This document shows positions 8,432 to 32,306 of a stretch of DNA of 64,000 bases, piece after piece. The notes beneath the pieces were generated by a model, which searched no databases, was not told where the DNA came from, and was given only the letters and a program-made list of their open reading frames with translations. How positions within the stretch are numbered: the first letter of the stretch is position 1; each line of letters starts with the position of its first letter. This DNA comes from Desulfobaccales bacterium. GTDB lineage: Bacteria; Desulfobacterota; Desulfobaccia; Desulfobaccales; 0-14-0-80-60-11. Made by a program: the position numbers and the translations under genes. Where the stretch lies: positions 648-64,647 of the forward strand of contig JBEKDQ010000001.1 in NCBI GenBank assembly GCA_050014275.1. The letters are read 5' to 3'.

Positions 8432-9763
8432 ATGTCCCAGGGAAGGATTCTGGCCATTGATGATGAACAGAACATCAGGACCCTCATCGCCAATGAATTC
8501 TCCTTGGAAGGCTTCGGCGTCACCACCGCCAAAAGCGGCGAGGAGGGCCTGAAGTTTTGTGATAAAGAGAAGTTTGACGTCGTCCTCCTGGACATCCGGC
8601 TGCCCAAGATGAACGGCATCGAGGTGCTCCGGCGCCTAAAGGAGAAGACGCCGGATGCCAGGGTCATCATGATCACGGCCTACGGCGACATCAAAACCGC
8701 CGTGGAATCCATGAAACTGGGGGCCCAGGATTACGTCACCAAGCCTTTCAAACTCGGCGAACTCCTGGGTCTAGTAAAACAGGCCTTGGGCGGTGGCCAG
8801 AGCGGCGGCGATGCCAAAACCTCCGAGTCTGCCCTGGCGGCCGGCGGGGCCCCGGGCTTTATCCGCTGTCCCAACCGGGCGATGCAAGACCTCTATGACC
8901 TGGTGGCCAAGGTGGCCCCTACGGATAAGACCATCTTAATCCAGGGGGAAACCGGCGTAGGCAAGGATGTGGTGGCTCAACAGATTCACGCCCTGAGCCG
9001 GCGCAAGGACGGCCCTTTCATTATCGTGGATTGCGGCATCCTCAACCAAAACCTGGCGGAAAGTGAGCTTTATGGCCATACCAAAGGCGCCTTCTCCGGG
9101 GCCTGGGAAAAGAGGTCCGGCCTGGTGGAGCAGAGCCATGGCGGTACCCTGTTCCTGGACGAAATCGGCAACATCGAATTGGAATTGCAGAAAAAATTCC
9201 TGCGCTTCCTGGAGACCAAGAAGTTTCGCCGCCTGGGAGAAACCCGGGAGGTCGAAATCGACACCCGGATCATCCTGGCCACCCACCTGGACCTGCAGGA
9301 AGCGGTGGCCCGGGGGACTATGCGCAAGGACTTGTTTTACCGCATTGACGTGATTCTCATTCCTATTCCACCTCTAAGAAAACGGCCGGAAGACGTGCCT
9401 CCACTGGCCCGCCATTTCCTCAGTCTGGAGCAGAGTATCGTTGGCGCCAAGAAGATCTCAGCCGAAGCCATGCGGATCATGACCGAGTATGCCTGGCCGG
9501 GAAACGTTAGGGAACTCCGGAGCGTGATCAACAAGGCGGTGATTTTTGCCCGGACCGATACCATTACGCCCAACGATCTGCCCTCTGAGCTCAGGAGAAA
9601 TGTGCCGGTTTCCCCGCAGAAGACCCTGGAGGACTTGGAGAAGAATTATATCCTCACGGTCCTGGAGAGAACAGGAGGCAATCAGAGCGAGGCCGCCAAG
9701 ATCCTGGGGATTAACCGCAAGACCCTTTATAAAAAGATTCATAAGTTTAAGATACTTAATTGA
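8432..9763 (+). CDS. Sigma-54-dependent response regulator (NtrC family enhancer-binding protein)
   Basis: 443 aa. Receiver domain (DDEQNIR..., DVVLLDIRLPKMNG), AAA+ core (GETGVGKD, GAFSGA (GAFTGA-type motif), LFLDEIG) and a C-terminal Fis-type HTH. Confidence 0.9.
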   Translation: MSQGRILAIDDEQNIRTLIANEFSLEGFGVTTAKSGEEGLKFCDKEKFDVVLLDIRLPKMNGIEVLRRLKEKTPDARVIMITAYGDIKTAVESMKLGAQDYVTKPFKLGELLGLVKQALGGGQSGGDAKTSESALAAGGAPGFIRCPNRAMQDLYDLVAKVAPTDKTILIQGETGVGKDVVAQQIHALSRRKDGPFIIVDCGILNQNLAESELYGHTKGAFSGAWEKRSGLVEQSHGGTLFLDEIGNIELELQKKFLRFLETKKFRRLGETREVEIDTRIILATHLDLQEAVARGTMRKDLFYRIDVILIPIPPLRKRPEDVPPLARHFLSLEQSIVGAKKISAEAMRIMTEYAWPGNVRELRSVINKAVIFARTDTITPNDLPSELRRNVPVSPQKTLEDLEKNYILTVLERTGGNQSEAAKILGINRKTLYKKIHKFKILN

Positions 9764-10024: not shown

Positions 10025-10040
10025 AGGCACGCGGTTTGCT
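10025..10040 (+). promoter_or_regulatory. Candidate sigma-54 promoter ~590 nt upstream of the mycofactocin-type cluster
   Basis: AGGCACGCGGTTTGCT has GG (10026-27) and GC (10038-39) 12 nt apart, a near-consensus GGCACG-N4-TTGC. The long distance to the first CDS lowers confidence. Confidence 0.4.
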
Positions 10041-10617: not shown

Positions 10618-11427
10618 ATGAAGCTGGAAGGCAAAGTAGCCATCATAACCGGCGGGGCACGCGGCAACGGCTTTGCTGCGGCTAAGCTGATGGCCCAGGA
10701 AGGCGCGGATATCGTCATTGCCGACATCTGCGAAGATATCGCCACGGTTCCCTATCCTCTGTCCACCCCAGAGGGCATGGCGAACTCGGTCAACGAGATC
10801 AAAAAGCTGGGGCGGAAGGCCATGGGCATCAAGTGCGACGTGCGCAAGGCAGCCGATGTCCAGGCCATGGTGCAGCAGGTGCTGGACAGCTTCGGCAAGA
10901 TCGACATCCTGGTGAACAACGCCGGCACGGCCACCCTGGAGGCGGTGGTGGACATGAGCGAGGAATCCTGGGACGACATGATCGACGTCCACCTGAAAGG
11001 CACCTTCCTGTGCAGCAAATACGTGGTGCCTCAGATGATCGACGCCCACAGCGGTAAGGTGGTCAACATCAGCTCGGTGGGCGGCACCCGGGGTTTCGGG
11101 ATGGGCAGCCATTACTGCGCCGCCAAGCACGGCATCATCGGCTTTACCAAATCCCTGGCCATGGAGACCGCCGACCACAACATCAACGTCAACGCGGTGT
11201 GCCCAGGCACGGTCTGGACCGACATGATGCAGGGCCTGGCTAACTATTTCGGCATGGAAACCGCCGACGCCAAGGAGAACTTCTTCTCGGGCCATCTCTT
11301 CAAGGACCGGGAGATCACTCCGGACGATATTGGCCAGGCCGTGCTCTGGTTGGTCACCGAGGACACCAAGTGCATCACCGGCGGGATCATCATGGTGGAC
11401 GCCGGCTGGACTTGCCGGGCACCGTAA
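10618..11427 (+). CDS. Mycofactocin-coupled SDR-family oxidoreductase
   Basis: 269 aa. Has TGGARGNG, and the characteristic insert after the second strand (IADICEDIATVPYPLSTPEGMANSVNEIKKLGRK) seen in the mycofactocin-associated SDR subfamily. YxxxK is present as YCAAK. It lies immediately upstream of mftA. Confidence 0.8.
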   Translation: MKLEGKVAIITGGARGNGFAAAKLMAQEGADIVIADICEDIATVPYPLSTPEGMANSVNEIKKLGRKAMGIKCDVRKAADVQAMVQQVLDSFGKIDILVNNAGTATLEAVVDMSEESWDDMIDVHLKGTFLCSKYVVPQMIDAHSGKVVNISSVGGTRGFGMGSHYCAAKHGIIGFTKSLAMETADHNINVNAVCPGTVWTDMMQGLANYFGMETADAKENFFSGHLFKDREITPDDIGQAVLWLVTEDTKCITGGIIMVDAGWTCRAP

Positions 11428-11512: not shown

Positions 11513-11638
11513 ATGGACGATGTGACCAGACGCGAAGAACAACCCCTGGAAGCCCAAGCCGAGGAGCTGGTCCCCTGCATCCTGGAAGAAGTCTGCATCG
11601 AAGAGATGGCGGTGGACGGAATCTGTGGCATCTACTAA
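11513..11638 (+). CDS. mftA: Mycofactocin precursor peptide MftA (variant C-terminus ...VDGICGIY)
   Basis: Hand-translated 41-aa ORF that falls below the ORF-track cutoff: MDDVTRREEQPLEAQAEELVPCILEEVCIEEMAVDGICGIY then stop. An acidic leader plus a C-terminal xDGxCGxY matches the canonical MftA ending IDGMCGVY. GGAGGA RBS lies upstream. Confidence 0.8.
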   Translation: MDDVTRREEQPLEAQAEELVPCILEEVCIEEMAVDGICGIY

Positions 11639-11708: not shown

Positions 11709-11990
11709 ATGAGCCCGGGAAAGGTCTATTGTCTCAAGGAGGGGGTCCAGGTGCGCCCGGAGGTCTTTGGGCTGCTCTTTTACGATTACCGGGGTCCCAA
11801 ACTCTACTTCGTGCCTTCCCGTGACCTCATCAACATTTCTTTTTTTGCCGGACGGCAAACCGAGCAGGAACTGATTGAAACCATTGCCACCGCTCATCCC
11901 TGGTCCCGTCGCGATATTCAGGACCGGGTGCGGCAAATTCTGGAGATGCTCGAGACGAAGGGATTGGTCCATGGGCAATCGTTATCTTGA
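11709..11990 (+). CDS. mftB: Mycofactocin biosynthesis chaperone MftB (PqqD/RRE family)
   Basis: ~93 aa from the internal ATG (MSPGKVYCLKEGVQVRPEVFGLLFYDYRGPKLYFV...). Typical MftB N-terminal pattern and position between mftA and mftC. Confidence 0.8.
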   Translation: MSPGKVYCLKEGVQVRPEVFGLLFYDYRGPKLYFVPSRDLINISFFAGRQTEQELIETIATAHPWSRRDIQDRVRQILEMLETKGLVHGQSLS

Positions 11991-13038
11991 CCTGGGGTTA
12001 TCCGCCCCGGTAAACGTCACCTGGGAAGTGACTTACAACTGCAACCTCTCGTGCATCCACTGCCTGTCGGACTCGAGCCGGCAGGGGCACCTGGGGCTGA
12101 GCACCCAGGAGTGCCTGGGGGTGATCGATATCCTGGCGGACCAGAAGGTCTTCCAGTTGAGCATCGGCGGCGGCGAGCCCTTCACCCGTCCGGATTTTTT
12201 GGATATCGTGGACCATGCCCACCAAAAGGGTATCGTCACCTGCATCAGCACCAATGGCACCCTGATCACCGAAGAGATAGCCCGGCGGCTGGATCACCGA
12301 CTGGTCTATGTCCAGGTGAGCCTGGACGGCGCCACCACCGAGTCCAATGACGCCATCCGGGGCCGGGGCAGCTTCCGCAAGGCGGTGCGAGCCCTGGAAC
12401 TCTTAGGCCAGACGAACATCGGTCTGAGCCTCAACACCGTGCTCACCCGTCTCAGTTTCCCGGAGTTGGACCGCCTCTCCGACCTGGCGGCCAGCGTCGG
12501 GGCCCGCCTCAGGGTCTCGCGCTTCCGGCCATCGGGCCGGGGCAAGCGCTCCTGGGACGACCTGAATCTTTCCAAGGAGCAGATGGTCGGCTTCTCGGAG
12601 TGGCTGAACCGGCACCTGGAAGTCTCCACCGGCGACTCCTTCTTCTCGGTGTCCTCGGAAGACCGCCGCTCCCTGGGGCTTAACATGTGTGGGGCGTGTA
12701 AGCTCACCTGCTGTATCTCCCCACTGGGAGAGATTTATCCCTGCGCCTTCTTGCAGGAGCCGGAATTTCTGGCCGGTAAGCTGCTGGAGGATAATTTCGC
12801 TCACATCTGGGAGCACTCGCTGGTCTTTGGCTCTTTTCGCGAATTAGAGATCAAATCCTGCGAGCGCTGCCAGCGCTTTAATCTGTGCCACGGCGGCTGC
12901 CCGGCCGTGGCTTATCATACGCAACGCCGCTTGGGCCTGCCGGACCCCGAGTGCCTGGTCAATTGCATCACCGTTAATTCTTTGACACCCGGGAGGGCCG
13001 ATGACCAACGCGATACCCCGAGGGCGGTTCTCCCTTAG
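11971..13038 (+). CDS. mftC: Mycofactocin radical SAM/SPASM maturase MftC
   Basis: ~355 aa from MGNRYLDLG... Has the CNLSCIHC radical SAM motif, then GGGEPF, VSLDGATTESNDAIRGRGSF, RVSRFRPSGRG, TGDSFF, GLNMCGA and SPASM cysteines (CERCQRFNLCHGGC, PDPEC). Overlaps mftB by 20 nt. Confidence 0.9.
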   Translation: MGNRYLDLGLSAPVNVTWEVTYNCNLSCIHCLSDSSRQGHLGLSTQECLGVIDILADQKVFQLSIGGGEPFTRPDFLDIVDHAHQKGIVTCISTNGTLITEEIARRLDHRLVYVQVSLDGATTESNDAIRGRGSFRKAVRALELLGQTNIGLSLNTVLTRLSFPELDRLSDLAASVGARLRVSRFRPSGRGKRSWDDLNLSKEQMVGFSEWLNRHLEVSTGDSFFSVSSEDRRSLGLNMCGACKLTCCISPLGEIYPCAFLQEPEFLAGKLLEDNFAHIWEHSLVFGSFRELEIKSCERCQRFNLCHGGCPAVAYHTQRRLGLPDPECLVNCITVNSLTPGRADDQRDTPRAVLP

Positions 13039-14530
13039 ACCGGGCCTCAGGCTGATCCCAGGGGAGGCGGGAGGGGTCCTCCTCCAGCCCGCACCGCTAC
13101 GCCTCCTTCGTGTCAACTCCGCAGCATTTGCGCTCCTTCAGAGATGTCAGGCAGGCTTCTTTTTAGAGAATAACGCCAGCCAGCCCGCGGGCCAACCGGA
13201 GAGGTCCATGTTCGCCTTTCTCGATGCCCTCTGGCAATCCGGTTTGCTGGACTGGCAGCCGGCCCTGGATACCTGCGCCCCGGCGGTCAGTATCGTCCTG
13301 CCGGTATATAACCGGGCCGGGGAGATCGGCAGATGCCTCGAGGCGCTGCTGGCCCTCAATTACCCCGGAGCGCGGCGGGAGATCATCGTGGTAGACGATG
13401 GCTCCACAGACGGCACCCCGGACGTGGTGAGAAATTGTCCGGTCAGGCTCCTCGTTCAGCCCCAAAACCTCGGGCAATCCGCAGCCCGCAATGCCGGGGT
13501 GCGGGCCGCCGGGGGCGATATCATTGCCTTTATCGATAGCGACTGCATCGCCGACCGGGACTGGCTTCGGGAGCTGTTGCCCTATTTTCAGGATTCCCGG
13601 GTAGCCCTGGTGGGCGGCTACGTAGATTCCTTCTTCCGGGAGACCAGGCTGGACCGCTTTGAGGAGGTCCAGTCTCCTCTGAACATGGGCCAGGGGTTGG
13701 CCTTCGGCACCACTGCTGAGTCGGACTTTTACGTGCCCACCTGCAATGTCCTGATCCGGAAAGAAGCCTACCTGGAGGTGGGGGGGCTGGATGAGGGGCT
13801 GCGTCTGGGCGAAGATGTGGACCTGTGTTGGCGGCTCAAGGAAAAGGGCCATCGTCTTCTTTACGTGCCCCGGGGCAAGGTGAGACACAAGCATCGCAAC
13901 CGCCTCCGGGAAATCCTGGCCCGGCGTTTCGACTATGGCACCTCCGAGGCCTTTCTCTTCAGCCGGCATGAGCAGGTGAAAAAACGCTTCCCCTGGAAAC
14001 CCACGGCCCTGGGTGTCTTCTTCTTAGGTTGTCTGGCGCTGCTGACGGGGTTCTGGCTGCTTCTCCCCCTGGCGGCGTTGTTGACGGCGACCGAGGCCTG
14101 GCGCCGCCAGCGGCAGGTGCAGATGAAGGCCGGGATGGCCCTGGGCTACCTCGCGGTCCTGAGGGCGATTCTCAGGGATTATTTCGCCACAGGGTTTTAT
14201 CTCACTTACCACTTGCTCCGCTATTATTTACTGCCTATTTTAATAATAGCCCTAATTTTTCCGGCCGCGGCGCCGCTAGCGGCGGTGCTTATCCTCTTTC
14301 CGGCGACGGTAGAGTTCGCCCGAAAGAAGCCGCGGCTGTCCCTGCCGCTGTTTCTCTGCCTCTATCTGGCGGAGCAGGCCTGCTATCAGGCCGGGGTATT
14401 CTGGGGTTGTCTCATTTGGAAAAATTTTCGTCCATATCATCTGTTGTTCTTCCGGTCTCAGAGAAATTCTGGGGCAGAGAGAGGTACACCGAATCTTAAC
14501 TTTGAGGAGACCATATGCCGAAATTCTTAA
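13001..14530 (+). CDS. mftF: Mycofactocin-system glycosyltransferase MftF (GT2 with N-terminal extension and C-terminal TM helices)
   Basis: 509 aa. N-terminal RFSLRPGLRLIPGEAGGVLLQPAPLRLLRVNSAAF segment, a GT2 core (VSIVLPVYNR, VVDDGSTDGT, FIDSDC, GEDVDLCWR), and hydrophobic helices at the C-terminus. Confidence 0.75.
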   Translation: MTNAIPRGRFSLRPGLRLIPGEAGGVLLQPAPLRLLRVNSAAFALLQRCQAGFFLENNASQPAGQPERSMFAFLDALWQSGLLDWQPALDTCAPAVSIVLPVYNRAGEIGRCLEALLALNYPGARREIIVVDDGSTDGTPDVVRNCPVRLLVQPQNLGQSAARNAGVRAAGGDIIAFIDSDCIADRDWLRELLPYFQDSRVALVGGYVDSFFRETRLDRFEEVQSPLNMGQGLAFGTTAESDFYVPTCNVLIRKEAYLEVGGLDEGLRLGEDVDLCWRLKEKGHRLLYVPRGKVRHKHRNRLREILARRFDYGTSEAFLFSRHEQVKKRFPWKPTALGVFFLGCLALLTGFWLLLPLAALLTATEAWRRQRQVQMKAGMALGYLAVLRAILRDYFATGFYLTYHLLRYYLLPILIIALIFPAAAPLAAVLILFPATVEFARKKPRLSLPLFLCLYLAEQACYQAGVFWGCLIWKNFRPYHLLFFRSQRNSGAERGTPNLNFEETICRNS

Positions 14531-14787
14531 TTGAACGAGAGATTCCCAAGGCCGGTCAGCTTTCCCCCGCGGACCTGCAGGCCATCTCCCAGAAATCCTG
14601 CCAGGTTCTTCGGGAACTCGGTCCGCAAATCCAGTGGCTGCAGAGCTACGTGACCCCAGACAAGATTTACTGCGTATATCTGGCGCCCAACGAGGACATA
14701 ATCAGGGAACATGCCAAGCGGGGCGGCTTTCCCGCCAACCGTATTTCTGAAATCAAAAAGGTGATTGATCCTACGACAGCCGAATAG
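14515..14787 (+). CDS. DUF4242-family small protein (family reported to include a Ni-binding ferredoxin-fold protein)
   Basis: 90 aa, MPKFLIEREIPKAGQLSPADL...YCVYLAPNEDIIREHAKRGGFPANRISEIK, which matches the DUF4242 pattern as I remember it. Overlaps the mftF end by 16 nt. Confidence 0.55.
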   Translation: MPKFLIEREIPKAGQLSPADLQAISQKSCQVLRELGPQIQWLQSYVTPDKIYCVYLAPNEDIIREHAKRGGFPANRISEIKKVIDPTTAE

Positions 14788-14813
14788 GACAATCCCGAAA
14801 CAAGCCGGCCCTC

Positions 14814-15647
14814 ATGACGAAAGATTTGACCAACAAATATCATCGTCTGCGTACAATTCTCCAGGACCTGGGGAGCGTGGCAGTGGCCTACTCCGGCGGG
14901 GTGGACAGCACCCTGCTCCTCAAGGTGGCCCAGGAGGTCCTGGGGGAGCGGATACTGGCCATTACCGCCGACTCCGAGACCACCCCCCAGCAGGAGCGGA
15001 AAGATGCGGCCCTCCTGGCCCGAGAACTGGGGGTGGAGCACCTGGTGGTGGCCGGCCGGGAACTGGAGCTGCAGGAGTTTCTCCGGAACCCCACCGACAA
15101 GTGTTATATCTGCAAAAAGGCTCGTTTCAGCGAGCTGGTGAAAATGGCCCGGGAGCGCGGCCTCAATGCGGTGGTGGACGGCGGCAACTTGGACGACCAG
15201 GCAGACTTCCGTCCCGGCATGCGGGCCGTTGAGGAACTGGGGATCAGGAGCCCTCTGGCGGAAGCCGGCCTTACCAAGGCGGAGATCCGCCTCCTCTCCA
15301 AGAGGCTGAAGCTCCCCACCTGGAAAAAGCCGGCCTACGCCTGCCTGGCCTCCCGTATCCCGTACCATCACGAAATCACGGTGGAGAAGCTGCGGCAGAT
15401 CGATGCCGCCGAAGAGCTAATCCGGAAAAGGGGCCTGGCGACCCAGGTGCGGGTCCGGCATTATGGCGACACGGCCCGCATCGAGGTAGAACCCGTAAGC
15501 ATCCACAGGCTGGCCGCCAAGATGGTGCGCTCGGACCTAATCAAAGAGCTTAAGACCCTGGGCTTCAAGTTCGTCACCCTGGACCTGGAGGGGTACCGTA
15601 CCGGGAGTCTGAACCCGGCTGAGGTTAAAACCAAAACAGAAAGTTAA
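14814..15647 (+). CDS. larE: ATP-dependent sacrificial sulfur transferase LarE
   Basis: 277 aa. PP-loop motif AYSGGVDST, a conserved Cys region (DKCYICKK), and overall LarE-like length and order next to larB and larC. Confidence 0.85.
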   Translation: MTKDLTNKYHRLRTILQDLGSVAVAYSGGVDSTLLLKVAQEVLGERILAITADSETTPQQERKDAALLARELGVEHLVVAGRELELQEFLRNPTDKCYICKKARFSELVKMARERGLNAVVDGGNLDDQADFRPGMRAVEELGIRSPLAEAGLTKAEIRLLSKRLKLPTWKKPAYACLASRIPYHHEITVEKLRQIDAAEELIRKRGLATQVRVRHYGDTARIEVEPVSIHRLAAKMVRSDLIKELKTLGFKFVTLDLEGYRTGSLNPAEVKTKTES

Positions 15648-15730
15648 TGGTCCCCTTAGAAAATCCGCTGGCCGCCCCATGGGGCGCCATCAACCCTACG
15701 GCCAAGGGCCTGTTTAAAGGAAGGTAAAGC

Positions 15731-16567
15731 ATGGAAAATGAATTCTTAAGAGACCTGCTGAAGCAGGTCGCCAGCGGCCAGATGAATCTGGACGCCGCCA
15801 TGCACGCATTGCGCAAGCTCCCCTTTGAGGACCTGGGCTACGCCCGGATAGACTTCCATCGTTGCCTGCGGAACGGGGTGCCGGAGGTCATTTATTGTGC
15901 CGGGAAGACCCTGTCGCAGATCCAGGGCATTGCCCAGAAGCTCGCCCATCACCATGTTAACGTCCTGGCTACCAGGGCCAGCCAGGAGGTGTTTGAGGGC
16001 GTCCGGGAAGTGGTCCCCGACTGCGAGTACCACGAAGCGGCCCGCATCATCGTGCTAAAGCCCCGGCCGTTGGAAGGATCGGGGCTCATCGCCGTGGTGA
16101 GCGCCGGCACCTCGGATATTCCCGTGGCCGAAGAGGCCGCCATCACCGCCGAAGTCCTGGGCAATAAAGTTACGCGCCTCTATGACGTGGGGGTGGCGGG
16201 AATCCACCGGCTGCTGAACCACTGTGACGACCTATTCCGGGCCAACGTGGCGGTGGTGGTAGCCGGCATGGAAGGCGCTCTGGCCAGCGTGGTGGGTGGC
16301 CTGGTCTCCTGCCCGGTAATCGGGTTGCCCACCAGCGTGGGTTACGGCGCCAGCTTCGGGGGCATCGCCGCCCTGCTCAGCATGCTGAACAGCTGCGCCT
16401 CGGGGGTCTCCGTGGTCAACATCGATAATGGCTTTGGGGCCGGCTTCCAAGCCAACCTCATCAACAAGATCGCGGCCAAGGCCGCCTCGGACACGGACAT
16501 TGCGAGGCCTGAGATGCAGGAAAAGCCCGCCGACCTACACCTGAAAAGGGCCTCCTGCTGTTCTTGA
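15731..16567 (+). CDS. larB: Nickel-pincer cofactor biosynthesis protein LarB (NaAD carboxylase/hydrolase, PurE-like)
   Basis: 278 aa. N-terminal LarB-specific segment (…LDAAMHALRKLPFEDLGYARIDFHRCLRNGVPEVIYCAGKT) followed by a PurE-like fold (VVSAGTSDIPVAEEA). Confidence 0.85.
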   Translation: MENEFLRDLLKQVASGQMNLDAAMHALRKLPFEDLGYARIDFHRCLRNGVPEVIYCAGKTLSQIQGIAQKLAHHHVNVLATRASQEVFEGVREVVPDCEYHEAARIIVLKPRPLEGSGLIAVVSAGTSDIPVAEEAAITAEVLGNKVTRLYDVGVAGIHRLLNHCDDLFRANVAVVVAGMEGALASVVGGLVSCPVIGLPTSVGYGASFGGIAALLSMLNSCASGVSVVNIDNGFGAGFQANLINKIAAKAASDTDIARPEMQEKPADLHLKRASCCS

Positions 16568-16602
16568 CGTTTTGGATATGGATTGGATATGGAGATGACT
16601 CA

Positions 16603-17925
16603 ATGAAAATCGCTTATTTCGATTGCTTCTCCGGGGCCAGCGGCGACATGATTCTGGGCGCCCTGGTGGACGCCGGCCTAAGTCTGGAGCATCTCACCGG
16701 GGAATTGGCCAAGTTGAACCTCTCCCATTATCATATTGCCGCCAAGAAGGTGGTAAAACAAGGGCTGGGCGGAACCCAGATGCTCATCGATCTAGAAAGG
16801 GACCGGCACTTCGAGGTCGGGCACCACCATGAGGAAGGGTTTCACAACCATCATCACAATCATCATCATGGGCGCCATCAAGATCATCATCACGACCACC
16901 ACTCGCACCGCGGCCACGAATGCCAGCGCCCGCCTCGCCATGAGCACCGGAATTTCCATGACATCAAAAATCTCATTGAGGCCAGCCCCCTCGACGAGGC
17001 GGTGAAGCACCAGAGTCTCCAGATCTTTACCCGTCTGGCCGAAGCTGAGGCGCAGGTGCACCGCACCAGTATCGAACAGATCCACTTCCACGAAGTGGGG
17101 GCGTTGGATTCCATCATCGACGTGGTGGGGGCGGCCATCGGCTTCCAGGCCCTGGGGATTGAGAAGATTTACTGTTCCCCCCTGGAGGTGGGCAGCGGCA
17201 CGGTGGTGTGCGCCCACGGCACCTTGCCGGTGCCGGCCCCGGCCACTCTGGAACTCATCAAAGGCAAGCCCGTCTATTCCAGCGGGGTGCAGGGAGAGCT
17301 GCTGACGCCCACCGGGGCCGCCATTCTCACCACCCTGGCCGCGGCCTTCGGCGCCATGCCGGCCATGACCGTGGAGGCCAGCGGTTACGGCGCCGGCACC
17401 CTGGATACGCCCGGTCCCAATCTCCTGCGGGTCTCCATCGGCGAAGCCGCCGAGACGGCGCAGGGCTTCCAGGTGGAGCGGGCGGCGGTCATTGAAACCA
17501 ATATTGACGACATGAATCCCCAGCTCTATGATTATCTTATCCAGAAGATGCTGGATATGGGCGCCCTGGATGTCTTCCTGGCGCCCATCCAGATGAAGAA
17601 GAATCGCCCCGGCACCCTGGTCTCGGTCATCTGCCAGGTGGAGGCGGTGGAAAAATTTGCCGAGTTTTTGCTCCAGGAGACCACTACCATCGGACTCAGG
17701 TGGCGGGTGGACCACCGCCTCAAGGCCGACAGGTCGATGCGGACGGTGGAGACCAGGTATGGGCCGGTGCGCTTTAAGGTGGCGCACCTGGGCGATCAGA
17801 CCGTCAATATTTCCCCGGAGTACGAGGACTGCAAACGCCTCGCTCTGGAAAAGAGCCTGGCCCTTAGAGACGTCATGGAAGAAGCCGGTTCGATGGCTGT
17901 GAAACTGAAACATGGCAATGGCTGA
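16603..17925 (+). CDS. larC: Nickel insertion protein LarC (DUF111) with internal His-rich tract
   Basis: Begins MKIAYFDCFSGASGDMILGALVDAGL, the LarC signature. The His-rich region HHHEEGFHNHHHNHHHGRHQDHHHDHHSHRGHE is encoded at ~16,820-16,920. Length ~440 aa. Confidence 0.85.
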   Translation: MKIAYFDCFSGASGDMILGALVDAGLSLEHLTGELAKLNLSHYHIAAKKVVKQGLGGTQMLIDLERDRHFEVGHHHEEGFHNHHHNHHHGRHQDHHHDHHSHRGHECQRPPRHEHRNFHDIKNLIEASPLDEAVKHQSLQIFTRLAEAEAQVHRTSIEQIHFHEVGALDSIIDVVGAAIGFQALGIEKIYCSPLEVGSGTVVCAHGTLPVPAPATLELIKGKPVYSSGVQGELLTPTGAAILTTLAAAFGAMPAMTVEASGYGAGTLDTPGPNLLRVSIGEAAETAQGFQVERAAVIETNIDDMNPQLYDYLIQKMLDMGALDVFLAPIQMKKNRPGTLVSVICQVEAVEKFAEFLLQETTTIGLRWRVDHRLKADRSMRTVETRYGPVRFKVAHLGDQTVNISPEYEDCKRLALEKSLALRDVMEEAGSMAVKLKHGNG

Positions 17926-18020
17926 GGGGAAGGATTTCCACCTTAGAACGTAATAAAGCTCAACTAATTTTCGAGCGGTGGGCGCTTCCACCGAAAATTC
18001 CACCAGTGAAGGAGCAGGCT

Positions 18021-19757
18021 ATGGAAAAGATTCTCAGAATTGACATGGGCGCAGAGGGCGGCCCCAAGGTCTCCGAGGTTCCGGTGGGGGAATACGCCGG
18101 TCTGGGCGGCCGGGCCATGACTTCCAGCATCGTGGGCAAAGAGGTGCCCCCCCTCTGCCATCCCCTGGGTGGCGAGAACAAACTGGTGATCGCCCCGGGG
18201 CTATTGAGCGGCACGGCCGCCGTTTCTTCCGGCCGCATCTCGGTGGGCTGCAAGAGCCCTTTGACCGGAACCATCAAGGAGTCCAACGCCGGGGGGCAAG
18301 CGGCGCAGGTCCTGGCTCGTTTGGGCTACGCCGGCATTGTCCTGGAGGGCAAGCCAAAAACGGACGACCTCTACAAGGTGTTCATCAACAAAGATGGAGT
18401 CACGATCACCGTGGACAACAGCTTAAAGCTGCTGCCCAATTATGACCTTATTGACCGGATGAAAAAGGAGCATGGAGAAAAGATCGCCTGTATCTCCATC
18501 GGCCCTTGCGGCGAGATGAAGATGGCGGCATCTTCAGTGGCCTTCACCGACATGGAGCTCAGGCCGTCCCGCCATGCAGGCCGTGGAGGGGTCGGAGCCG
18601 TTATGGGCGCCAAGCAAGTTAAAGTCATTGTGCTTGATGGAACGGGCACGAAGATGCGAACCCCCAAGAATCCGGAAAAATTCAACGATGCCAATAAGCG
18701 GTTTACGGAAGGGCTCAAGGGCCATCCGGTCACCGGGCAGGCGCTGCCCGCCTACGGCACGAATGTATTGACTAACATCCTCAATGAAGCAGGAGGGTAT
18801 CCTACTTACAACTTCGCGGAGGGGCGCTTTCAAGGGGCTCATCAGATCAGCGGTGAGACGCAGACAGAAATAATGGAATCCAGGGGCGGGTTGACCTCCC
18901 ATAGCTGCCACACTGGCTGCGCCATCCGCTGCTCGGGCACCTATCACGATAAAGACGGCCATTACGTGACTAAACAACCCGAATACGAAACTGTCTGGGC
19001 GCACGGGGGCAATTGTGGCATCTGTGATATGGATGCCATTGCCAATCTTGATTTCCTGGATGACAACTTCGGGCTGGACACCATTGAAACGGGGGTTACG
19101 GTGGGCGTGGCCATGGAAGCCGGCCTGCTCAAATTCGGAGATTCCGAAGGGGCCATCAATCTGGTGAAAGAAATAGGCAAAGGCACCTACCTGGGCCGCA
19201 TCCTGGGGGCCGGCGCCGAAGTCACCGGCAAAATCTTTGGCGTGGAGCGGGTTCCGGTGGTCAAAGGCCAGGCCATGCCCGCCTATGATCCTCGAGCAGT
19301 GCAGGGCATCGGCGTCACCTACGCCACCAGCACCATGGGGGCCGACCATACGGCCGGCTACGCCGTGGCCACCAATATCCTCAAAGTGGGGGGCGACGTC
19401 GATCCCCTTTCGCCCAAAGGCCAGGTGGAACTGTCCCGGAATCTGCAAATCGCCACGGCGGCGGTTGATGCCACCGGCATGTGCCTGTTCATCGCCTTCG
19501 CCGTCCTGGACCAGCCGGAGACCTTTCAGGCCTTGATCGATTTGATCAATGCCTTCTATGGCGGCAACCTGGATGCCAATGGCGTGATGGAATTGGGCAA
19601 AACCATCCTGAAGATCGAAAAGGAGTTCAATACCCAGGCCGGCTTCACCAAGGCCCACGACCGGCTGCCGCGGTTCTTCAAGAACGTGCCCCTGCCCCCG
19701 CATAACGTCGTCTTCCAGGTGACGGATGCGGAGCTGGATGAGGTGTACAACTTCTAA
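18021..19757 (+). CDS. Tungsten-containing aldehyde:ferredoxin oxidoreductase family protein (AOR copy 1)
   Basis: ~578 aa from the ATG preceded by AAGGAG (the ORF track starts at GTG 18006). AOR N-terminal domain (ILRIDMG..., GLGGRAMTS), and pterin/FeS region motifs (…GADHTAGY, CLF…). Confidence 0.9.
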   Translation: MEKILRIDMGAEGGPKVSEVPVGEYAGLGGRAMTSSIVGKEVPPLCHPLGGENKLVIAPGLLSGTAAVSSGRISVGCKSPLTGTIKESNAGGQAAQVLARLGYAGIVLEGKPKTDDLYKVFINKDGVTITVDNSLKLLPNYDLIDRMKKEHGEKIACISIGPCGEMKMAASSVAFTDMELRPSRHAGRGGVGAVMGAKQVKVIVLDGTGTKMRTPKNPEKFNDANKRFTEGLKGHPVTGQALPAYGTNVLTNILNEAGGYPTYNFAEGRFQGAHQISGETQTEIMESRGGLTSHSCHTGCAIRCSGTYHDKDGHYVTKQPEYETVWAHGGNCGICDMDAIANLDFLDDNFGLDTIETGVTVGVAMEAGLLKFGDSEGAINLVKEIGKGTYLGRILGAGAEVTGKIFGVERVPVVKGQAMPAYDPRAVQGIGVTYATSTMGADHTAGYAVATNILKVGGDVDPLSPKGQVELSRNLQIATAAVDATGMCLFIAFAVLDQPETFQALIDLINAFYGGNLDANGVMELGKTILKIEKEFNTQAGFTKAHDRLPRFFKNVPLPPHNVVFQVTDAELDEVYNF

Positions 19758-19885: not shown

Positions 19886-20524
19886 ATGTCTAACCGAGTG
19901 ACGAGGGATACCCCCAAACCTGACGCTGCCGTTCTCTCCTTTAGCCTATCGCAGGCTCATCTGCCGCGCCTTTTCCCTCTCTTGCAGCAAGGTTTTTTGG
20001 TCAGGGTTCCGGGGGGCTGCAATATCAGAACCATCCTTTGCCAGCATCTCGGCTTTACGCCGGACTATCTGGAAAACCGGATCCAGACCATCTTTCTCAA
20101 CGGCAAAGCGGTGGACGAAGTGGATGCGACCATCGTGGGCGAGGGCGCCACCCTGGCCCTGTCCACCGCCATGCCGGGGCTGGTGGGGGCGACCATGCGG
20201 AAGGGCGGCTATTATGCGGGCTTGCGCGGCGCCATCACTCACCGGGAGGCCAAACGAGCCACACCGGAGGCGAACTGCCTGGTGAGGCTTAAGCTTTTCA
20301 ACCTCTTGACCGGGGAAGTGGGGCCCCTTTTCCTGGAGAAGGGCATCTGTTTCGAGAGCGCCGTTCTTGAAGACTTTTTCAGAACCCGGCCGGAGGATTT
20401 CTGGTCGGGATTTCTGGCTGTGTCCCTGAACGGCAAGGAACTGGACCTCACGGCTTTGGCCGCCGGGCCCTGGCCCGGCGTGCCGGACCTTATCTGTCTG
20501 AAAGTTCTGGTCGGACCTGACTGA
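19886..20524 (+). CDS. Hypothetical protein (no recognisable family)
   Basis: 212-aa ORF with codon usage consistent with its neighbours. I recognise no motifs. Confidence 0.45.
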   Translation: MSNRVTRDTPKPDAAVLSFSLSQAHLPRLFPLLQQGFLVRVPGGCNIRTILCQHLGFTPDYLENRIQTIFLNGKAVDEVDATIVGEGATLALSTAMPGLVGATMRKGGYYAGLRGAITHREAKRATPEANCLVRLKLFNLLTGEVGPLFLEKGICFESAVLEDFFRTRPEDFWSGFLAVSLNGKELDLTALAAGPWPGVPDLICLKVLVGPD

Positions 20525-20557
20525 GAGGGAAAAATTTCACGGCAAGGAAGGCGGCTC

Positions 20558-21718
20558 ATGTTCAAGGCGGCTACCGTCACCCTGAAAAACAGGTTTTCCC
20601 GGGATATGGGACGGCGCCTGGGCAAGGCCCTGGTGGAGAAGCTCGGAGATTTCCCCCAGGCCTGCTGGCTCTTCTGTTCTCCCCAAACCGGCCAGCGGGA
20701 GTTGCTCAAGGGCATCGTCAGCGCCGTTCGCACTCACACCCTGGTGGGTTGCACCACCGACGGCGAGATCTCTTCCGAGGGCTTCAGCACCGGCTCGGCG
20801 GTGCTGGGGGGCATTGCCAGCGATCAGATCGACTTCCAGGTCGCCTGTGCCACCAATCTGGGCCAGGATTCCGAAAAAGCGGGGCAAGAACTGGCCAGGG
20901 CTTTCTCCCCGGGAACCAGTTATTTGCAGCTCTTCTCGGATGGCCTCACCGGCAATGGCTGCGCCCTCTTGCGGGGCATGGCGGGGGTCCTGGGCCGGCA
21001 GACGCCCATCGCCGGCGGCACGGCGGGAGATGGCGGGGAGTTCGTCCGCACCCGGCAGTACATCGGGGATCAGGTGCTGACTGATGCCGCGGTGGCCATC
21101 GGCTTGTCCGGTAACTTCCAGGTGGGCACCGGGGTCCGTAGCGGCTGGTCTCCCCTGGGTATCGCCAAGCGGGTGACCCGGGCCTCGGGCAATGTGCTTT
21201 ATGAATTGGGTGGCCAGCCGGCCCTGGAGGTCTATGAGCGCTTCCTGGGAAAACATGCCGAGAGATTACCGGCGGTGGGCGTGGAGTACCCCATGGGTCT
21301 GGTGGACGACAGCGGCTATTGCGGCGGTGGCGAATATCATCTCTTGCGCGCCACCATGTCGGTCAATCGCGAGGACGGCTCCATCTCCTTCGCCGGTGAG
21401 ATCCCGGAGGGGGCCATGGTCCGGATGACTTGTGGCGATACCGACGCCATCCTGGAGGCCACTGGCCGGGCCGTAGAATTGGCCCAGGAGGACCTGGGGG
21501 GGCGGTCCCCGGTCATGGCCTTTTTTTATTCCTGCATGGCCCGGAGAATTGTCCTGGGTCGGCGCACCAAAGAAGAAATAGAGCACATCCGCCAGAAAGT
21601 GGGCCGAGAAATCCCCATCCTGGGATTTTACACCTATGGGGAGTACTGCCGCGTCAGCCCCGGCGGCCCCAGCTTTCTCCACAACGAAACGGCCACGGTG
21701 TCGCTCATCGGAATTTGA
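20558..21718 (+). CDS. FIST-domain signal-transduction protein
   Basis: 386 aa. Layout and sequence resemble FIST_N/FIST_C proteins (…GCTTDGEIS…, …FYTYGEY…). AGGAAGG RBS present. The stop is separated by 3 nt from the start of the following hybrid kinase. Confidence 0.65.
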   Translation: MFKAATVTLKNRFSRDMGRRLGKALVEKLGDFPQACWLFCSPQTGQRELLKGIVSAVRTHTLVGCTTDGEISSEGFSTGSAVLGGIASDQIDFQVACATNLGQDSEKAGQELARAFSPGTSYLQLFSDGLTGNGCALLRGMAGVLGRQTPIAGGTAGDGGEFVRTRQYIGDQVLTDAAVAIGLSGNFQVGTGVRSGWSPLGIAKRVTRASGNVLYELGGQPALEVYERFLGKHAERLPAVGVEYPMGLVDDSGYCGGGEYHLLRATMSVNREDGSISFAGEIPEGAMVRMTCGDTDAILEATGRAVELAQEDLGGRSPVMAFFYSCMARRIVLGRRTKEEIEHIRQKVGREIPILGFYTYGEYCRVSPGGPSFLHNETATVSLIGI

Positions 21719-21721
21719 GAT

Positions 21722-23704
21722 ATGCAGATCAAAACTTTGCTGGAGAGAGTCAAGGAGTTGGAAGAACTGCTTGATGTCTCGGAGCGCAAAGCCGACATCT
21801 TGACCAACCTGCTGAAAGAGGCCAACGCCGAATTCGAACATACCCTGGAAATGGTCACCATCTCGCAGGCCAATTTCCGGGCCGTGTTTGAGAATGCCCC
21901 CGAAGCCATCTTTATTGTAGATGGGGAAGCATACCGCATCCTGGATTGTAACGACTTTGCCACGAAATGGCTGGGATATAGGCGCGAAGAGCTGCTTTCC
22001 CTCAGCTTTGACGACCTGATCGAAGCCAGCAGCCAACAGAATGTTTTACGCCTGGGCAGTAGCTATAAAGGCATCCAGGAGTGCCGCTTTAGGAAAAAGC
22101 GCGGCGTCGCGGTGGATTCCGAGGTGACGGGGACCATGCTCGAATTCCAGGGCAGAAGATGCATGGTGGTGCTTGTCCGGGATGTCACCGAACGCAAGCA
22201 GCTCGATGAACTGGCGAGGTACAAGGAACTCTTCGAGAACGTCACCGACCCTGTATTCATCAATAATCTCCAGGGGAGGATCCTGGAGGTCAATGATGTG
22301 GCTTGCGAGCGCTTCGGCTACTCCCGGGAAGAATTCTTCCGGATGAGTCTGAAACGACTCGCCGGGCCCGACCAACTGGCCCTCCTCCAGGAAACCAGGG
22401 CCCAGATCGAAGAAGGCCTGACCATCCAGTTTGAAATGGAAACGATTACCAAAACGGGGGAATGGATTCCAGTGGAATTCCACGCCCGGGGCATCACCTA
22501 TCGGGGCCAACCCGCGGTTTTGGGCGTGGCACGGGACTTGAGCTTCAGGAAGAAGCTGCAACAGACCCTGGTGGAAAAGGCCCGGCTGACTGCGGTGGGG
22601 GAAATGGCCAGCGGCATCGCCCATAACTTCAATAACCTGCTGCAGATGATCTTGGGGGCCACCGAGGCCTCCCTGGGGAAACTGGAGGCCGGCAAGATCA
22701 GGGAATGCCGGGAAGCACTCCAGCGGATTCAGGCCACCTCCCAGCGGGGCGGCGAAATCGTCCGGCGCCTCAAGGATTTTACCACCACCGGGTTTGCCGA
22801 CAGCGATGCGGCCGATAGTTTTGCACTGGCCGAACTGATCCGGGAAGCAGTGGAGCTGACCAAACCCCTGTGGAAGAACCTGCCTGATGTGCGGAAGATC
22901 GAGGTATATCAGGACCTGGACCCTGACTGCCTGGTGCAGGGGAGACCTTCGGAAATTTATGAAGTCCTGGTCAATCTCATCCTCAATGCGGTGGAAGCCA
23001 TGCCGAAAGGCGGGTCCTTGTTGATTTCCACCCGGGTCCGGGACGAGAAGGTTTGGCTCCAGGTCAGCGATACCGGGGTCGGCATCACCGCTGAAAACCT
23101 GGAGCGCCTCTTTCAGCCCTTCTTCAGCACCAAGGGGCTAAAGAGCAGCGGCTTGGGCCTCTCTTCCAGTTACGGCATCATCACGCGGCACCAGGGGGAG
23201 ATTCAGGTGGAAAGCACGGTGGGCCAGGGCACGACCTTCACGGTGACCCTACCCCTGGCCCATACCCCCGCCCGGATGAAAGTCGCCGCCCTAGTCGACC
23301 TGGAAAGTCCCAAGATCAAGTTTCTCATCATCGAGGACGAAATTAACATTGTTAAGTCCATGGAATTATTTTTTGAAGAGACCGAGGTGGAACTAGTCGC
23401 CTGCCGCACAGGCACCGAGGGTCTGGAAGTCTACCTCAACCACCAGTTTGATGTGGTGCTGTGCGACCTGGGACTGGATGACCTGAACGGCTGGGAAGTG
23501 GGCAAGCAAATCAAAGACCACTGCCAGGTGAAGGGACTCCGCAAGACCCCCTTCCTCCTTTATACCGGCTGGGATAAGAAATTTGATCCCGAGCAACTGG
23601 CAGAGAGCGGGGTGGACCGTCTGGTGACCAAACCCGTCTCCTGCGCCGATTTACTTCGTTTGCTGCGGGAAGCTGTGGCCCATAATAACAACCACAACCA
23701 CTGA
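21722..23704 (+). CDS. Hybrid sensor histidine kinase (coiled coil, 2 PAS, HisKA, HATPase, receiver)
   Basis: 660 aa. Two PAS-like repeats (VRDVTERK, ARDLSFRK boundaries), an H-box (IAHNFNNLLQ), N/G boxes (LNAVEAM, DTGVGI, GLGLSS), and a C-terminal receiver (FLIIEDE…DVVLCDLGLDDLNGWE). Confidence 0.9.
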   Translation: MQIKTLLERVKELEELLDVSERKADILTNLLKEANAEFEHTLEMVTISQANFRAVFENAPEAIFIVDGEAYRILDCNDFATKWLGYRREELLSLSFDDLIEASSQQNVLRLGSSYKGIQECRFRKKRGVAVDSEVTGTMLEFQGRRCMVVLVRDVTERKQLDELARYKELFENVTDPVFINNLQGRILEVNDVACERFGYSREEFFRMSLKRLAGPDQLALLQETRAQIEEGLTIQFEMETITKTGEWIPVEFHARGITYRGQPAVLGVARDLSFRKKLQQTLVEKARLTAVGEMASGIAHNFNNLLQMILGATEASLGKLEAGKIRECREALQRIQATSQRGGEIVRRLKDFTTTGFADSDAADSFALAELIREAVELTKPLWKNLPDVRKIEVYQDLDPDCLVQGRPSEIYEVLVNLILNAVEAMPKGGSLLISTRVRDEKVWLQVSDTGVGITAENLERLFQPFFSTKGLKSSGLGLSSSYGIITRHQGEIQVESTVGQGTTFTVTLPLAHTPARMKVAALVDLESPKIKFLIIEDEINIVKSMELFFEETEVELVACRTGTEGLEVYLNHQFDVVLCDLGLDDLNGWEVGKQIKDHCQVKGLRKTPFLLYTGWDKKFDPEQLAESGVDRLVTKPVSCADLLRLLREAVAHNNNHNH

Positions 23705-23706: not shown

Positions 23707-24717
23707 TCAGCCCCCAATGGCAGACATGGGGCCGCTGAGGCATTTTGGGGAAACGCCGTTGTTCAAGGAGTGTTCCCGGGGCTTATTCCAAATGGCCTGG
23801 CGAATGGCGACCTCGATATCCTTGTCGGCCGCCCCGCGGCGCAGCAGACTCCTGAGATCCACTTCTTCCCGGGTGAAGAGGCAGTTGCGCAGCTTGCCGT
23901 TCGCGGTCACCCGGAGGCGGTTGCAGGTGTGACAGAAGTGCTGGGTAACGGGCGTGATGAGACCAATCTTGCCCAAGGCCCCGGGAAAGCGGTAGTAGCG
24001 CGCCGGGCCGTTGCTGTGCTCGCTGTGGGCCGGCAGGAGCCGGTCCAGCCGCTGCAGGCGCTCTTTGATCTCCTCCCCTGAAAAAAAGTGTCTTTCCTGG
24101 ACTCCGGGCAGGAACTGCATCAGCTCGATGAATCTCACATGGAAGGGAAAGGTGTAGGTCAGGGAGGCCAGGTCGCCGATTTCCTCAGCATTGAGGTCCC
24201 GCATGACCACCACGTTGATCTTGATGGGCTGGAAACCGATGACGCGGGCCTGGTGAATACCTTTCCAAACCTGAAAAAAGGCGTTAATACCGGTGACCCG
24301 GGCATATTTTTCCGGGCTCAGGGTGTCCAGGCTGATGTTGAGCCGGCTGATCCCGGCGTTAAAGAGGTCCTGGGCGAATTGGGGCAAAAGGACCCCGTTG
24401 GTGGTGAGGCTGAGGCTTTCCAGCTCAGGCAGCCGGGCAATCCTTTCACAGAGATGGGGGAGATCGCGCCGCACCAGCGGTTCGCCCCCGGTGAGGCGGA
24501 TCTTGGTAATGCCCAGAGATATAGCTATCCTGGCAATTCTCTCCAGCTCCTCATAGCGCAGGATGTCTTCGTGTGGCAGAAAAGGCACACCCGTCGAAGG
24601 CATGCAATAGAGGCAGCGAAGATTGCAACGGTCGGTTACGGAGAGGCGAAGATAGTCAATGCGGCGCTGATAGGGGTCGATGAGGGGGTTTTCTGAGGTT
24701 CTCCGGTTAGATTGCAC
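23707..24717 (-). CDS. moaA: GTP 3',8-cyclase MoaA (radical SAM, molybdopterin/tungstopterin biosynthesis)
   Basis: IDYLRLSVTDRCNLRCLYCMP, GGEPLVRRD, and a C-terminal CHTCNRLRVTANGKLRNCLF auxiliary-cluster motif. The ORF extends to a TTG at 24765, but that codon sits inside a strong hairpin. The GTG at 24717 gives a typical N-terminus. Confidence 0.9.
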   Translation of the reverse strand: MQSNRRTSENPLIDPYQRRIDYLRLSVTDRCNLRCLYCMPSTGVPFLPHEDILRYEELERIARIAISLGITKIRLTGGEPLVRRDLPHLCERIARLPELESLSLTTNGVLLPQFAQDLFNAGISRLNISLDTLSPEKYARVTGINAFFQVWKGIHQARVIGFQPIKINVVVMRDLNAEEIGDLASLTYTFPFHVRFIELMQFLPGVQERHFFSGEEIKERLQRLDRLLPAHSEHSNGPARYYRFPGALGKIGLITPVTQHFCHTCNRLRVTANGKLRNCLFTREEVDLRSLLRRGAADKDIEVAIRQAIWNKPREHSLNNGVSPKCLSGPMSAIGG

Positions 24718-32297: not shown

Positions 32298-32306
32298 GAG
32301 TCCGGT

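Follow-up and report, generated by a model that had tools for sequence, protein, structure and literature searches.

The stretch analyzed here, referred to as the window, comprises 64 kb of contig JBEKDQ010000001.1 from a Desulfobaccales bacterium (GCA_050014275.1; positions 648 to 64,647) and carries larE, larB, and larC, the genes for making the cofactor known as nickel-pincer nucleotide (NPN). They lie between a variant mycofactocin block and a gene encoding a tungsten-type aldehyde:ferredoxin oxidoreductase (AOR), and they are preceded by a short gene of the DUF4242 family, which the initial annotation had proposed to encode a nickel chaperone or storage protein for LarC. The genes from the end of the mycofactocin block to the AOR are as follows.

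13001-14530, + strand: MftF glycosyltransferase (TIGR03965, 392 bits against a cutoff of 280)
14515-14787, + strand: DUF4242/SCO4226-like protein of 90 aa (PF14026, 101.3 bits against a gathering score of 28.5, E 3.4e-29)
14814-15647, + strand: LarE, PP-loop sulfur insertase of the CXXC-C ([4Fe-4S]) type (TIGR00268, 322.8 bits against a cutoff of 150)
15731-16567, + strand: LarB, nicotinic acid adenine dinucleotide (NaAD) carboxylase/hydrolase (NF033503, 299.7 bits against a cutoff of 175; PurE-like PF00731, 49 bits)
16603-17925, + strand: LarC, fused LarC1+LarC2 nickel insertase with a His-rich tract (PF01969, 496 bits; TIGR00299, NF052512)
18006-19757, + strand: AOR1, tungsten-type AOR (PF02730, PF01314), directly after larC

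DUF4242, larE, larB, and larC are all intact. As initially annotated, the 90-aa DUF4242 gene precedes the lar genes and overlaps the mftF stop, its start codon lying 16 nt inside the end of mftF. The gaps that follow measure 26 nt (DUF4242 to larE), 83 nt (larE to larB), 35 nt (larB to larC), and approximately 80 nt (larC to the AOR gene). No intrinsic terminators were found in the intergenic gaps from mftF to the AOR gene, and an Rfam scan of the window for riboswitches, such as NiCo and Moco, and for other RNAs returned nothing at the gathering score. The LarC start at 16603 was taken from gene calls on identical contigs, the alternative in the open reading frame (ORF) being 16564. The ORF map, Pfam, and NCBIfam agree that the three lar genes are complete and co-directional and that LarC is His-rich, in keeping with the initial annotation. 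Residues 27-32 of LarE read SGGVDS, the PP-loop SGGxDS ATP-binding motif, and its cysteines C97xxC100 and C177 fit the CXXC-C pattern of the catalytic [4Fe-4S] LarE class, as opposed to the single sacrificial Cys176 of Lactiplantibacillus plantarum LarE (PMC9283937); the protein is assigned to the [4Fe-4S] type from this motif. LarC1 (231 bits) and LarC2 (153 bits) are both encoded in one ORF, the His-rich tract of which is HHHEEGFHNHHHNHHHGRHQDHHHDHHSH, and LarC is predicted from its family to insert nickel in a CTP-dependent manner. Judged from sequence, larE-larB-larC is a complete NPN biosynthesis set and a working operon. It resembles the larA-larB-larC-larE operon of L. plantarum, compared here through its plasmid copy (L100), in having contiguous LarB, LarC, and LarE equivalogs. 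It differs in lacking larA, in the order E-B-C, in encoding LarC as a single fused protein, in the CXXC-C motif of LarE in place of Cys176, and in the position of the genes between mycofactocin-type genes and a tungsten AOR.

The lar operon is a block of a conserved supercluster of anaerobes, not a free-standing orphan. This supercluster consists of an iron-dependent alcohol dehydrogenase (Fe-ADH)/kinase/sigma-54 set, a short-chain dehydrogenase/reductase (SDR), variant MftA/B/C (with or without F), LarE/B/C, a tungsten AOR, and a DUF362 module of five to six genes. A metagenome scan anchored on an alignment of LarE provided 80 loci with flanks of up to 10 kb, which dereplication at 97% reduced to 69 groups. 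mftC or mftF stands directly upstream of larE in 16 of the 26 groups in which at least 1.5 kb of upstream sequence is available and LarB/LarC are visible, and MftF is in line in 5 of 17 groups. Among groups with at least 8 kb of upstream sequence, 10 of 15 carry DUF362a, DUF362b, and an Mrp-like gene, and larC is followed by a gene resembling AOR1 (60% identity or higher) in 9 of the 12 groups with enough downstream sequence. Loci with LarC homologs of 61-76% identity retain the order mftF or mftC, then larE-larB-larC, then AOR; in L098 and L099, genes for DUF362, DUF362(+Fer4), and an Mrp/ParA-like ATPase, along with small ORFs, come before the block. DUF362a occurs with lar genes in these two loci and in L103, L111, L113, L118, and others, as well as in Pelotomaculum thermopropionicum SI (L182) and a Thermococci archaeon (L185). 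The Pelotomaculum cluster, which contains no mft genes, runs Fe-ADH, kinase, sigma-54 regulator, insertion sequence element, DUF362a, DUF362b, Mrp, NAD-epimerase-like gene, S1, S3, LarB, LarC, LarE, and MoaA. That of the Thermococci archaeon, likewise free of mft genes, comprises LarC′, LarB, LarE, DUF362a, DUF362b, Mrp, S2, S3, and LarC, and adjoins AOR, GcvH, LplA, and NiFe hydrogenase genes. In L103, a DUF362a-like gene stands directly 5′ of larE; the region 2585-5340 of this locus holds the DUF362a-like gene and a 140-aa ORF before larE, with larB apparently reduced to a 17-codon remnant before larC. The larE gene of L103 shares at least 97% DNA identity with that of L104, and the L103 layout is either a real variant or an assembly artifact.

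LarA, the lactate racemase, is the usual user of NPN. No LarA/DUF2088-type gene had been seen in the window initially, and Pfam, phmmer, and hidden Markov model (HMM) searches were all negative. Pfam scans of approximately 40 long window ORFs, chosen to span the non-overlapping coding regions, gave no match to PF09861 (Lar_N) or PF21113 (LarA_C). With L. plantarum LarA as the query, phmmer had no hit at E <= 10 when run on the stop-to-stop ORFs (60 aa or longer) of the window and of loci L001-L099. A second search used an HMM made from two sequences, L. plantarum plasmid LarA (L100) and the LarA homolog from metagenomic locus L184; run against the ORFs of the window, L001-L099, and all later loci, it matched only its own two seeds. 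A larA gene just outside the window, which the initial annotation had named as the observation that would count against it, was looked for on longer contigs of the same organism, and no LarA-family gene was present in approximately 10 kb upstream (L091) or approximately 7.6 kb downstream (L094). In total, approximately 82 kb around the lar genes was inspected and is LarA-free, and no LarA concealed in the window or just beyond it was found by the Pfam, phmmer, HMM, and flank inspections. Such an arrangement is widespread, as the initial annotation had stated, since approximately 15% of surveyed genomes have larBCE but no larA (PMC11796402).

Two non-LarA users of nickel-pincer cofactors have been published, an aldo/keto reductase (AKR; NphT) and an NPAD-dependent ornithine cyclodeaminase, both discovered via the neighborhoods of larBCE genes without larA (PMC13524815). 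Neither the AKR family PF00248 nor the ornithine cyclodeaminase family was matched in the Pfam scans of the window, and phmmer with an AKR query on the window and earlier loci produced two weak matches only (E 0.02 and 0.12); no NphT-like AKR or ornithine cyclodeaminase client was found in the window. LarA-like or AKR-like genes occur in none of the 69 dereplicated groups, the AKR search being a tblastn with the lar-adjacent AKR of Clostridium butyricum (E 1e-6, 80 bits). The C. butyricum plasmid itself (NZ_CP013238.1, 592856-599465; L101) carries larB-larC-larE and, after them, ECF transporter genes of the Cbi type and a gene annotated as an aldo/keto reductase, the arrangement behind the published NPN-dependent AKR family.

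A candidate client of another kind lies further downstream in the window, where a DUF362 module (44181-48962) directly follows a second AOR gene and a ThiF-family gene.

44181-45707, + strand: DUF362a, LarA-clan protein into which a two-[4Fe-4S] ferredoxin domain is inserted (PF04015, 124 bits)
45796-46770, + strand: DUF362b, paralog without a Lys184 equivalent (PF04015, 63 bits), always adjacent to DUF362a
46751-47785, + strand: Mrp/NUBPL-like P-loop ATPase with a His-rich C-terminal tail (PF10609, 282 bits; MrpORP-like at 287 bits, below cutoff)
47923-48264, + strand: small ORF S1
48567-48962, + strand: small ORF S3

DUF362b is a probable partner subunit of DUF362a. The two small ORFs are conserved, with homologs 3′ of the Mrp-like gene in L098, L099, L182, L184, and L185. 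The tail of the Mrp-like ATPase, HDHHNHHHHQNHHQGDECCGHLH at 47680-47785, resembles by analogy the tails of nickel metallochaperones; His-rich tails with 5-18 His are found in 11 related loci and are absent from the Pelotomaculum and archaeal versions. DUF362a itself has few homologs, 190 at E <= 1e-10.

The DUF362 and DUF2088 (LarA_N) families belong to the same Pfam clan, CL0471 (PMC11770544). In an alignment of 31 sequences of 32-95% identity, H207, H211, K221, H237, the Cys residues of the two-[4Fe-4S] insert, and a C-D-C motif are invariant (31 of 31). Profile alignment with hhalign places DUF362a residues 190-237 on LarA residues 153-200 without gaps, so that H211, K221, and H237 correspond to His174, Lys184, and His200 with the spacings of 10 and 16 kept, and a MAFFT alignment of five a-type proteins yields the same residue pairing. 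Lys184 tethers NPN in LarA and His200 ligates Ni (PMC9283937). At the Lys184 position, six b-type (DUF362b) proteins have L, L, A, S, Y, and Y in the MAFFT alignment, never Lys. An AlphaFold2 (AF2) model of DUF362a (pLDDT 86.7) returned 17 PDB matches at E <= 1e-3, all of which are LarA or its homologs (E 3e-6 to 8e-4). No solved structures near in sequence to DUF362a, or to DUF4242, were found. DUF362a matches PF04015 only, with no match to PF09861 or PF21113, and LarA phmmer and HMM searches also miss it. On these sequence comparisons, DUF362a is a relative of the LarA superfamily, which comprises NPN-dependent 2-hydroxyacid racemases and epimerases, and not a member of it. It shares with LarA the clan, the best structural matches, and the His174/Lys184/His200 equivalents, and differs in the two-[4Fe-4S] insert, the CDC motif, the paralogous partner DUF362b, and the dedicated Mrp-like ATPase, features that suggest net redox chemistry rather than racemization.

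The interpretation favored here, to which roughly even chances are given, is that LarE, LarB, and LarC supply their cofactor to DUF362a, an Fe-S-containing relative of LarA. The published non-LarA NPN enzymes encoded beside orphan larBCE provide a precedent for a local client (PMC13524815), though their folds are unrelated. In this pathway, LarB would carboxylate and hydrolyze NaAD, the [4Fe-4S]-type LarE would insert two sulfurs, and the His-rich LarC would insert nickel. NPN would then be passed to DUF362a, possibly aided by the Mrp-like ATPase, which has its His-rich tail in the subgroup that includes the window. DUF362a would abstract a hydride from an alcohol-, aldehyde-, or hydroxy-type substrate, with the electrons leaving via its Fe-S clusters, in a pathway in which the tungsten AOR and the SDR/mycofactocin pair may also take part.

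Several observations weigh against this assignment. The initial annotation had suggested that a neighboring gene could be the NPN client, and this stands only in part, as a nearby candidate exists but is no immediate neighbor, the DUF362 module lying 26 kb downstream of the lar genes. Outside Desulfobacterota, 4 of 6 sampled DUF362a homologs have no lar genes within 10 kb (L183, L184, L186, and L187), namely those of an Asgard archaeon, L184, L186, and a Bathyarchaeote. In the Asgard archaeon, the DUF362a gene abuts an AOR gene, and L184 has a LarA homolog and several AORs. With lar genes present in some lineages and absent near others, the DUF362-lar link is recurrent across domains and not universal in local synteny. 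The hhalign match spans 48 columns only (E 9e-4, probability 23%), and Foldseek TM-scores of the DUF362a model against LarA structures are low (0.27-0.41). Neither His108 of LarA nor Arg75, which binds the substrate, is kept in DUF362a, the His108 position being Ser, Thr, or Asn; of the catalytic pair, the His174 equivalent H211 is invariant, and a single catalytic His is also seen in some genuine LarA homologs (titles of PDB 9q3k/9q3j). The H/K/H triad is invariant in generic DUF362+Fer4 proteins as well and could thus serve another ligand. Lastly, DUF362a also tracks AOR genes (L183, L184, and L185), which would fit a role as partner or maturation factor of AOR with no connection to NPN.

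A broader proposal, which is more tentative and rather doubtful at present, is that DUF362a-type proteins, together with DUF362b, the Mrp-like ATPase, and the small ORFs, constitute an unrecognized nickel-pincer class. These would be Fe-S oxidoreductases derived from LarA in which Ni-pincer abstraction of a hydride is coupled to one-electron transfer, and they would work with tungsten AORs. In Desulfobacterota, they would be genetically fused to a variant mycofactocin pathway without MftD/MftE, in which the NPN enzyme might even replace the O2-dependent MftD step.

It is unlikely, though the likeliest of the alternatives, that the cofactor goes to a LarA-superfamily racemase or epimerase encoded at another site in the genome and that the clustering of mft, AOR, and DUF362 genes reflects only shared regulation or metabolism. 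The inspected part of the genome amounts to only approximately 82 kb, which leaves room for a distal LarA and also counts against delivery to DUF362a. In L184, a genuine LarA homolog (Lar_N + LarA_C) lies between two AOR genes in a DUF362a-containing locus, so LarA homologs and DUF362 modules can coexist. However, a LarA-like gene is found neither in the window, nor in its flanks, nor in the 69 dereplicated lar loci, larA-free genomes with larBCE are common, as noted above, and the order of DUF362, mft, lar, and AOR genes is conserved across phyla, which argues for a local client.

The genes directly upstream of mftF point to a further alternative. They form the start of a variant mycofactocin block with the following members.

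10618-11427, + strand: mycofactocin-coupled SDR, subfamily 3 (NF040490, 510 bits against a cutoff of 385), conserved in the supercluster
11513-11638, + strand: variant-type MftA precursor ending in ...AVDGICGIY (NF040489, 48.7 bits against a cutoff of 30)
11709-11990, + strand: MftB chaperone (TIGR03967, 53 bits, above cutoff)
11971-13038, + strand: MftC radical-SAM maturase (TIGR03962, 365 bits against a cutoff of 265)

The block resembles canonical mftABCDEF with its nicotinoprotein partners in that MftA, MftB, MftC, MftF, and the SDR of the window all pass curated models. It differs in the variant-type precursor (GICGIY), in having no mftD or mftE nearby, and in being joined to larEBC. The MftA C-terminus is CGIY in 19 of 20 peptides (from 17 metagenomic loci, the window, L098, and L099), and that of L162 ends in ...AIDGICGVY. 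Pfam scans of the window and related clusters revealed no FMN-dehydrogenase or creatininase-family gene that would represent mftD or mftE, the pair responsible for release and oxidative deamination of the core, though either could be encoded elsewhere in the genome. Across the window, L098, L099, and L111-L174, some lineages have MftF; in many, mftF is absent too and mftC is followed directly by larE.

On this basis, the cofactor could serve a neighboring oxidoreductase of the NAD(P) type or the variant mycofactocin pathway. In the first case, the subfamily-3 SDR would bind NPN instead of NAD, as NphT does; in the second, an NPN enzyme would replace the MftD/MftE steps on the ...GICGIY peptide. 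The adjacency of mftC or mftF to larE in 16 of the 26 informative loci, the conservation of the SDR and variant MftA throughout the supercluster, and the failure to find mftD and mftE in the window or related clusters are consistent with such a role, as is the finding that NAD-type oxidoreductases beside orphan larBCE proved to be NPN enzymes (PMC13524815). An NAD-epimerase/SDR-like gene also occupies the equivalent slot in Pelotomaculum and stands beside DUF362a in the Bathyarchaeote. Yet the SDR scores as a standard mycofactocin-coupled SDR, and its translation, read by eye, retains TGxxxGxG in canonical form, NNAG, the Ser-Tyr-Lys triad, and an acidic residue for the ribose of adenosine. 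In addition, Pelotomaculum and the Thermococci archaeon have clusters of lar and DUF362 genes that contain no mft genes, and mft is thus an add-on and not a core partner. A client of this kind is regarded as quite improbable.

The DUF4242 protein does belong, as first annotated, to a family that includes the structurally known Ni-binding protein SCO4226 of Streptomyces coelicolor (PDB 4OI3/4OI6), which binds Ni in vitro, weakly, with a Kd of approximately 10 uM, through surface sites conserved only within Streptomyces (PMC4186839). The best PDB match of its AF2 model (pLDDT 84.5) is 4oi6_A, which is SCO4226 (TM 0.76/0.83, rmsd 2.0 A), and the model predicts the same ferredoxin-like beta-alpha-beta-beta-alpha-beta fold. 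The two proteins share 18% identity, and a profile search detects 4oi3 at no better than E = 1.4. In this non-significant alignment of 34 residues, Ser78, Pro48, and Arg76 of the window protein stand opposite SCO4226 His76, Ser46, and Glu74, respectively, with Asp43 outside, so that two of the three Ni-1 ligands (Asp43, Ser46, and His76) seem to be absent. A count that is independent of any alignment gives 1 His in the DUF4242 protein against 9 in SCO4226. Unlike SCO4226, the window protein is part of a subfamily that is ultra-conserved and occurs in many phyla; H66 is the only invariant His of this subfamily, and two Cys, C29 and C53, are invariant as well. More than 8000 relatives of it were found; the nearest named source is a Desulfobaccales metagenome-assembled genome (MAG) at 93% identity, and relatives in Acidobacteriota, Methylomirabilota, Planctomycetota, Verrucomicrobiota, Gemmatimonadota, Collimonas, and Rhodanobacteraceae are 72-83% identical.

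The genomic neighborhoods of these relatives were sampled in a collection of one genome per species as 80 loci of ±10 kb around homologs of 72-93% identity, with window Lar and Mft proteins as tblastn queries. Lar genes lie within 10 kb of DUF4242 in the sister MAG only and in 0 of the 79 independent loci, so that the linkage across genomes by which the initial annotation had proposed to check its idea is absent in 79 of 80 loci. In 37 of the 79, mostly titled Acidobacteriota or Pyrinomonadaceae, DUF4242 instead lies approximately 105 nt upstream of a lipoyl-E2 acyltransferase gene; in the same 37 loci, it is approximately 2.7 kb downstream of an E3 gene. Conversely, DUF4242 is present in only 3 of the 69 dereplicated metagenomic LarE loci. 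Where present in this cluster type, it comes after the MftF glycosyltransferase gene, and the arrangement is retained in relatives with LarC down to approximately 76% identity. In clusters of the L098 and L099 type (LarC 67% and 61% identical), mftF runs straight into larE without DUF4242. In L157, a GT2 glycosyltransferase gene is followed by DUF4242 on the opposite strand, 9 kb from larE, so DUF4242 stays with the GT2 gene and not with larE. DUF4242 is a lineage-specific insertion between mftF and larE, a recent passenger whose tie, if any, is to mftF, and it is probably not a dedicated nickel chaperone.

That DUF4242 feeds nickel to LarC as a chaperone or store is highly improbable and is rejected on synteny and apparent ligand loss, with LarC possessing a His-rich nickel tract of its own, despite the likely co-transcription of the gene (26 nt upstream of larE and overlapping mftF), its retained position in relatives, and the fold it shares with an in vitro Ni binder (PMC4186839). 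A tempting but unsupported annotation is thereby removed. GcvH-like lipoyl-carrier genes occur near the DUF362a modules of L184, L185, and L187, and LplA lipoate-ligase genes occur in L184 and L185; the proximity of DUF4242 to lipoyl-E2 genes and of GcvH/LplA to DUF362a may be coincidence or may reflect lipoyl-linked chemistry.

Upstream of the SDR lies a candidate regulatory set, identified by Pfam and NCBIfam, and two sigma-54-like promoter candidates are located upstream of the SDR-mft-lar genes and of DUF362a, each with one mismatch to TGGCAC-N5-TTGCW.

5976-7136, + strand: ErcA-like Fe-ADH
7145-8344, + strand: PAS histidine kinase
8432-9763, + strand: sigma-54-dependent response regulator
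10025-10040, + strand: sigma-54-like promoter candidate AGGCACGCGGTTTGCT, upstream of SDR-mft-lar
43650-43665, + strand: sigma-54-like promoter candidate TGGCGCAGATTTTGCT, upstream of DUF362a

The same trio of Fe-ADH, kinase, and sigma-54 regulator precedes the DUF362/lar cluster of P. thermopropionicum (L182), and a regulatory role is suggested by this analogy. The trio would then control the proposed pathway, conceivably through the sites at 10025 and 43650, which carry no statistical support. Window-wide, the count of sigma-54-like matches is not above chance, so both sites are only suggestive. The 16-mer TGGCGCAGATTTTGCT recurs identically at 29319-29334 on the - strand, upstream of the gene at 28586-29182.

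Other genes of the window surround these blocks. Following AOR1 are conserved downstream genes:

19886-23704, + strand: a 212-aa protein without a known family, a FIST sensor, and a PAS hybrid histidine kinase

The run at 29773-42248 contains molybdopterin-oxidoreductase-like, HdrC/B-like, HdrA-like, and NiFe-hydrogenase small- and large-subunit-like genes, a poly-ferredoxin gene, and the second AOR gene, and by analogy is similar to electron-bifurcating complexes of tungsten enzymes (BamB-like). The DUF362 modules of L184 and L185 likewise have NiFe-hydrogenase, Fer4, and AOR genes next to them. The window is rich in tungsten/molybdenum cofactor functions, with moaA (23707-24765), a ThiF/MoeB-like gene, and two AORs, and a PBP_like_2 solute-binding protein encoded at 4777-5610 on the - strand, beside a ThiS/MoaD-like gene, could be of the tungstate/molybdate-binding TupA type. 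At the edge of the DUF362 module, an inverted repeat of approximately 260 nt (48327-48585 and 55251-55511, 84-94% complementary) flanks a 6.7-kb segment that carries S3, Zn-ADH, PIG-L, and CBS genes and a long malic-enzyme gene, and may mark an inversion or insertion. Two intergenic direct repeats of 85 nt, 92% identical, lie at 55839-55923 and 56075-56159.

Orphan larBCE clusters (PMC11796402) and two non-LarA users (PMC13524815) were already known, and what is of interest here is the DUF362a hypothesis together with the lar/mycofactocin/tungsten supercluster, not DUF4242. In the literature searched, DUF362 occurs with "nickel-pincer" solely as a phylogenetic outgroup, and no paper has "mycofactocin" together with "pincer," nor is the association of lar with mycofactocin described there; the classification paper on tungsten oxidoreductases makes no mention of nickel, mycofactocin, or DUF362. 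For many anaerobes, the analysis offers a concrete, testable candidate, namely an Fe-S-bearing DUF362 protein that keeps the cofactor-holding residues of LarA and is clustered with larBCE in both Bacteria and Archaea, and one of its carriers, P. thermopropionicum SI, is a cultured organism. If the proposal is true, NPN chemistry would no longer be limited to racemization and the shuttling of hydrides but would include net electron transfer, a function would be assigned to part of the widespread DUF362 family, and the nickel, tungsten, and mycofactocin cofactor systems would be joined in one pathway.

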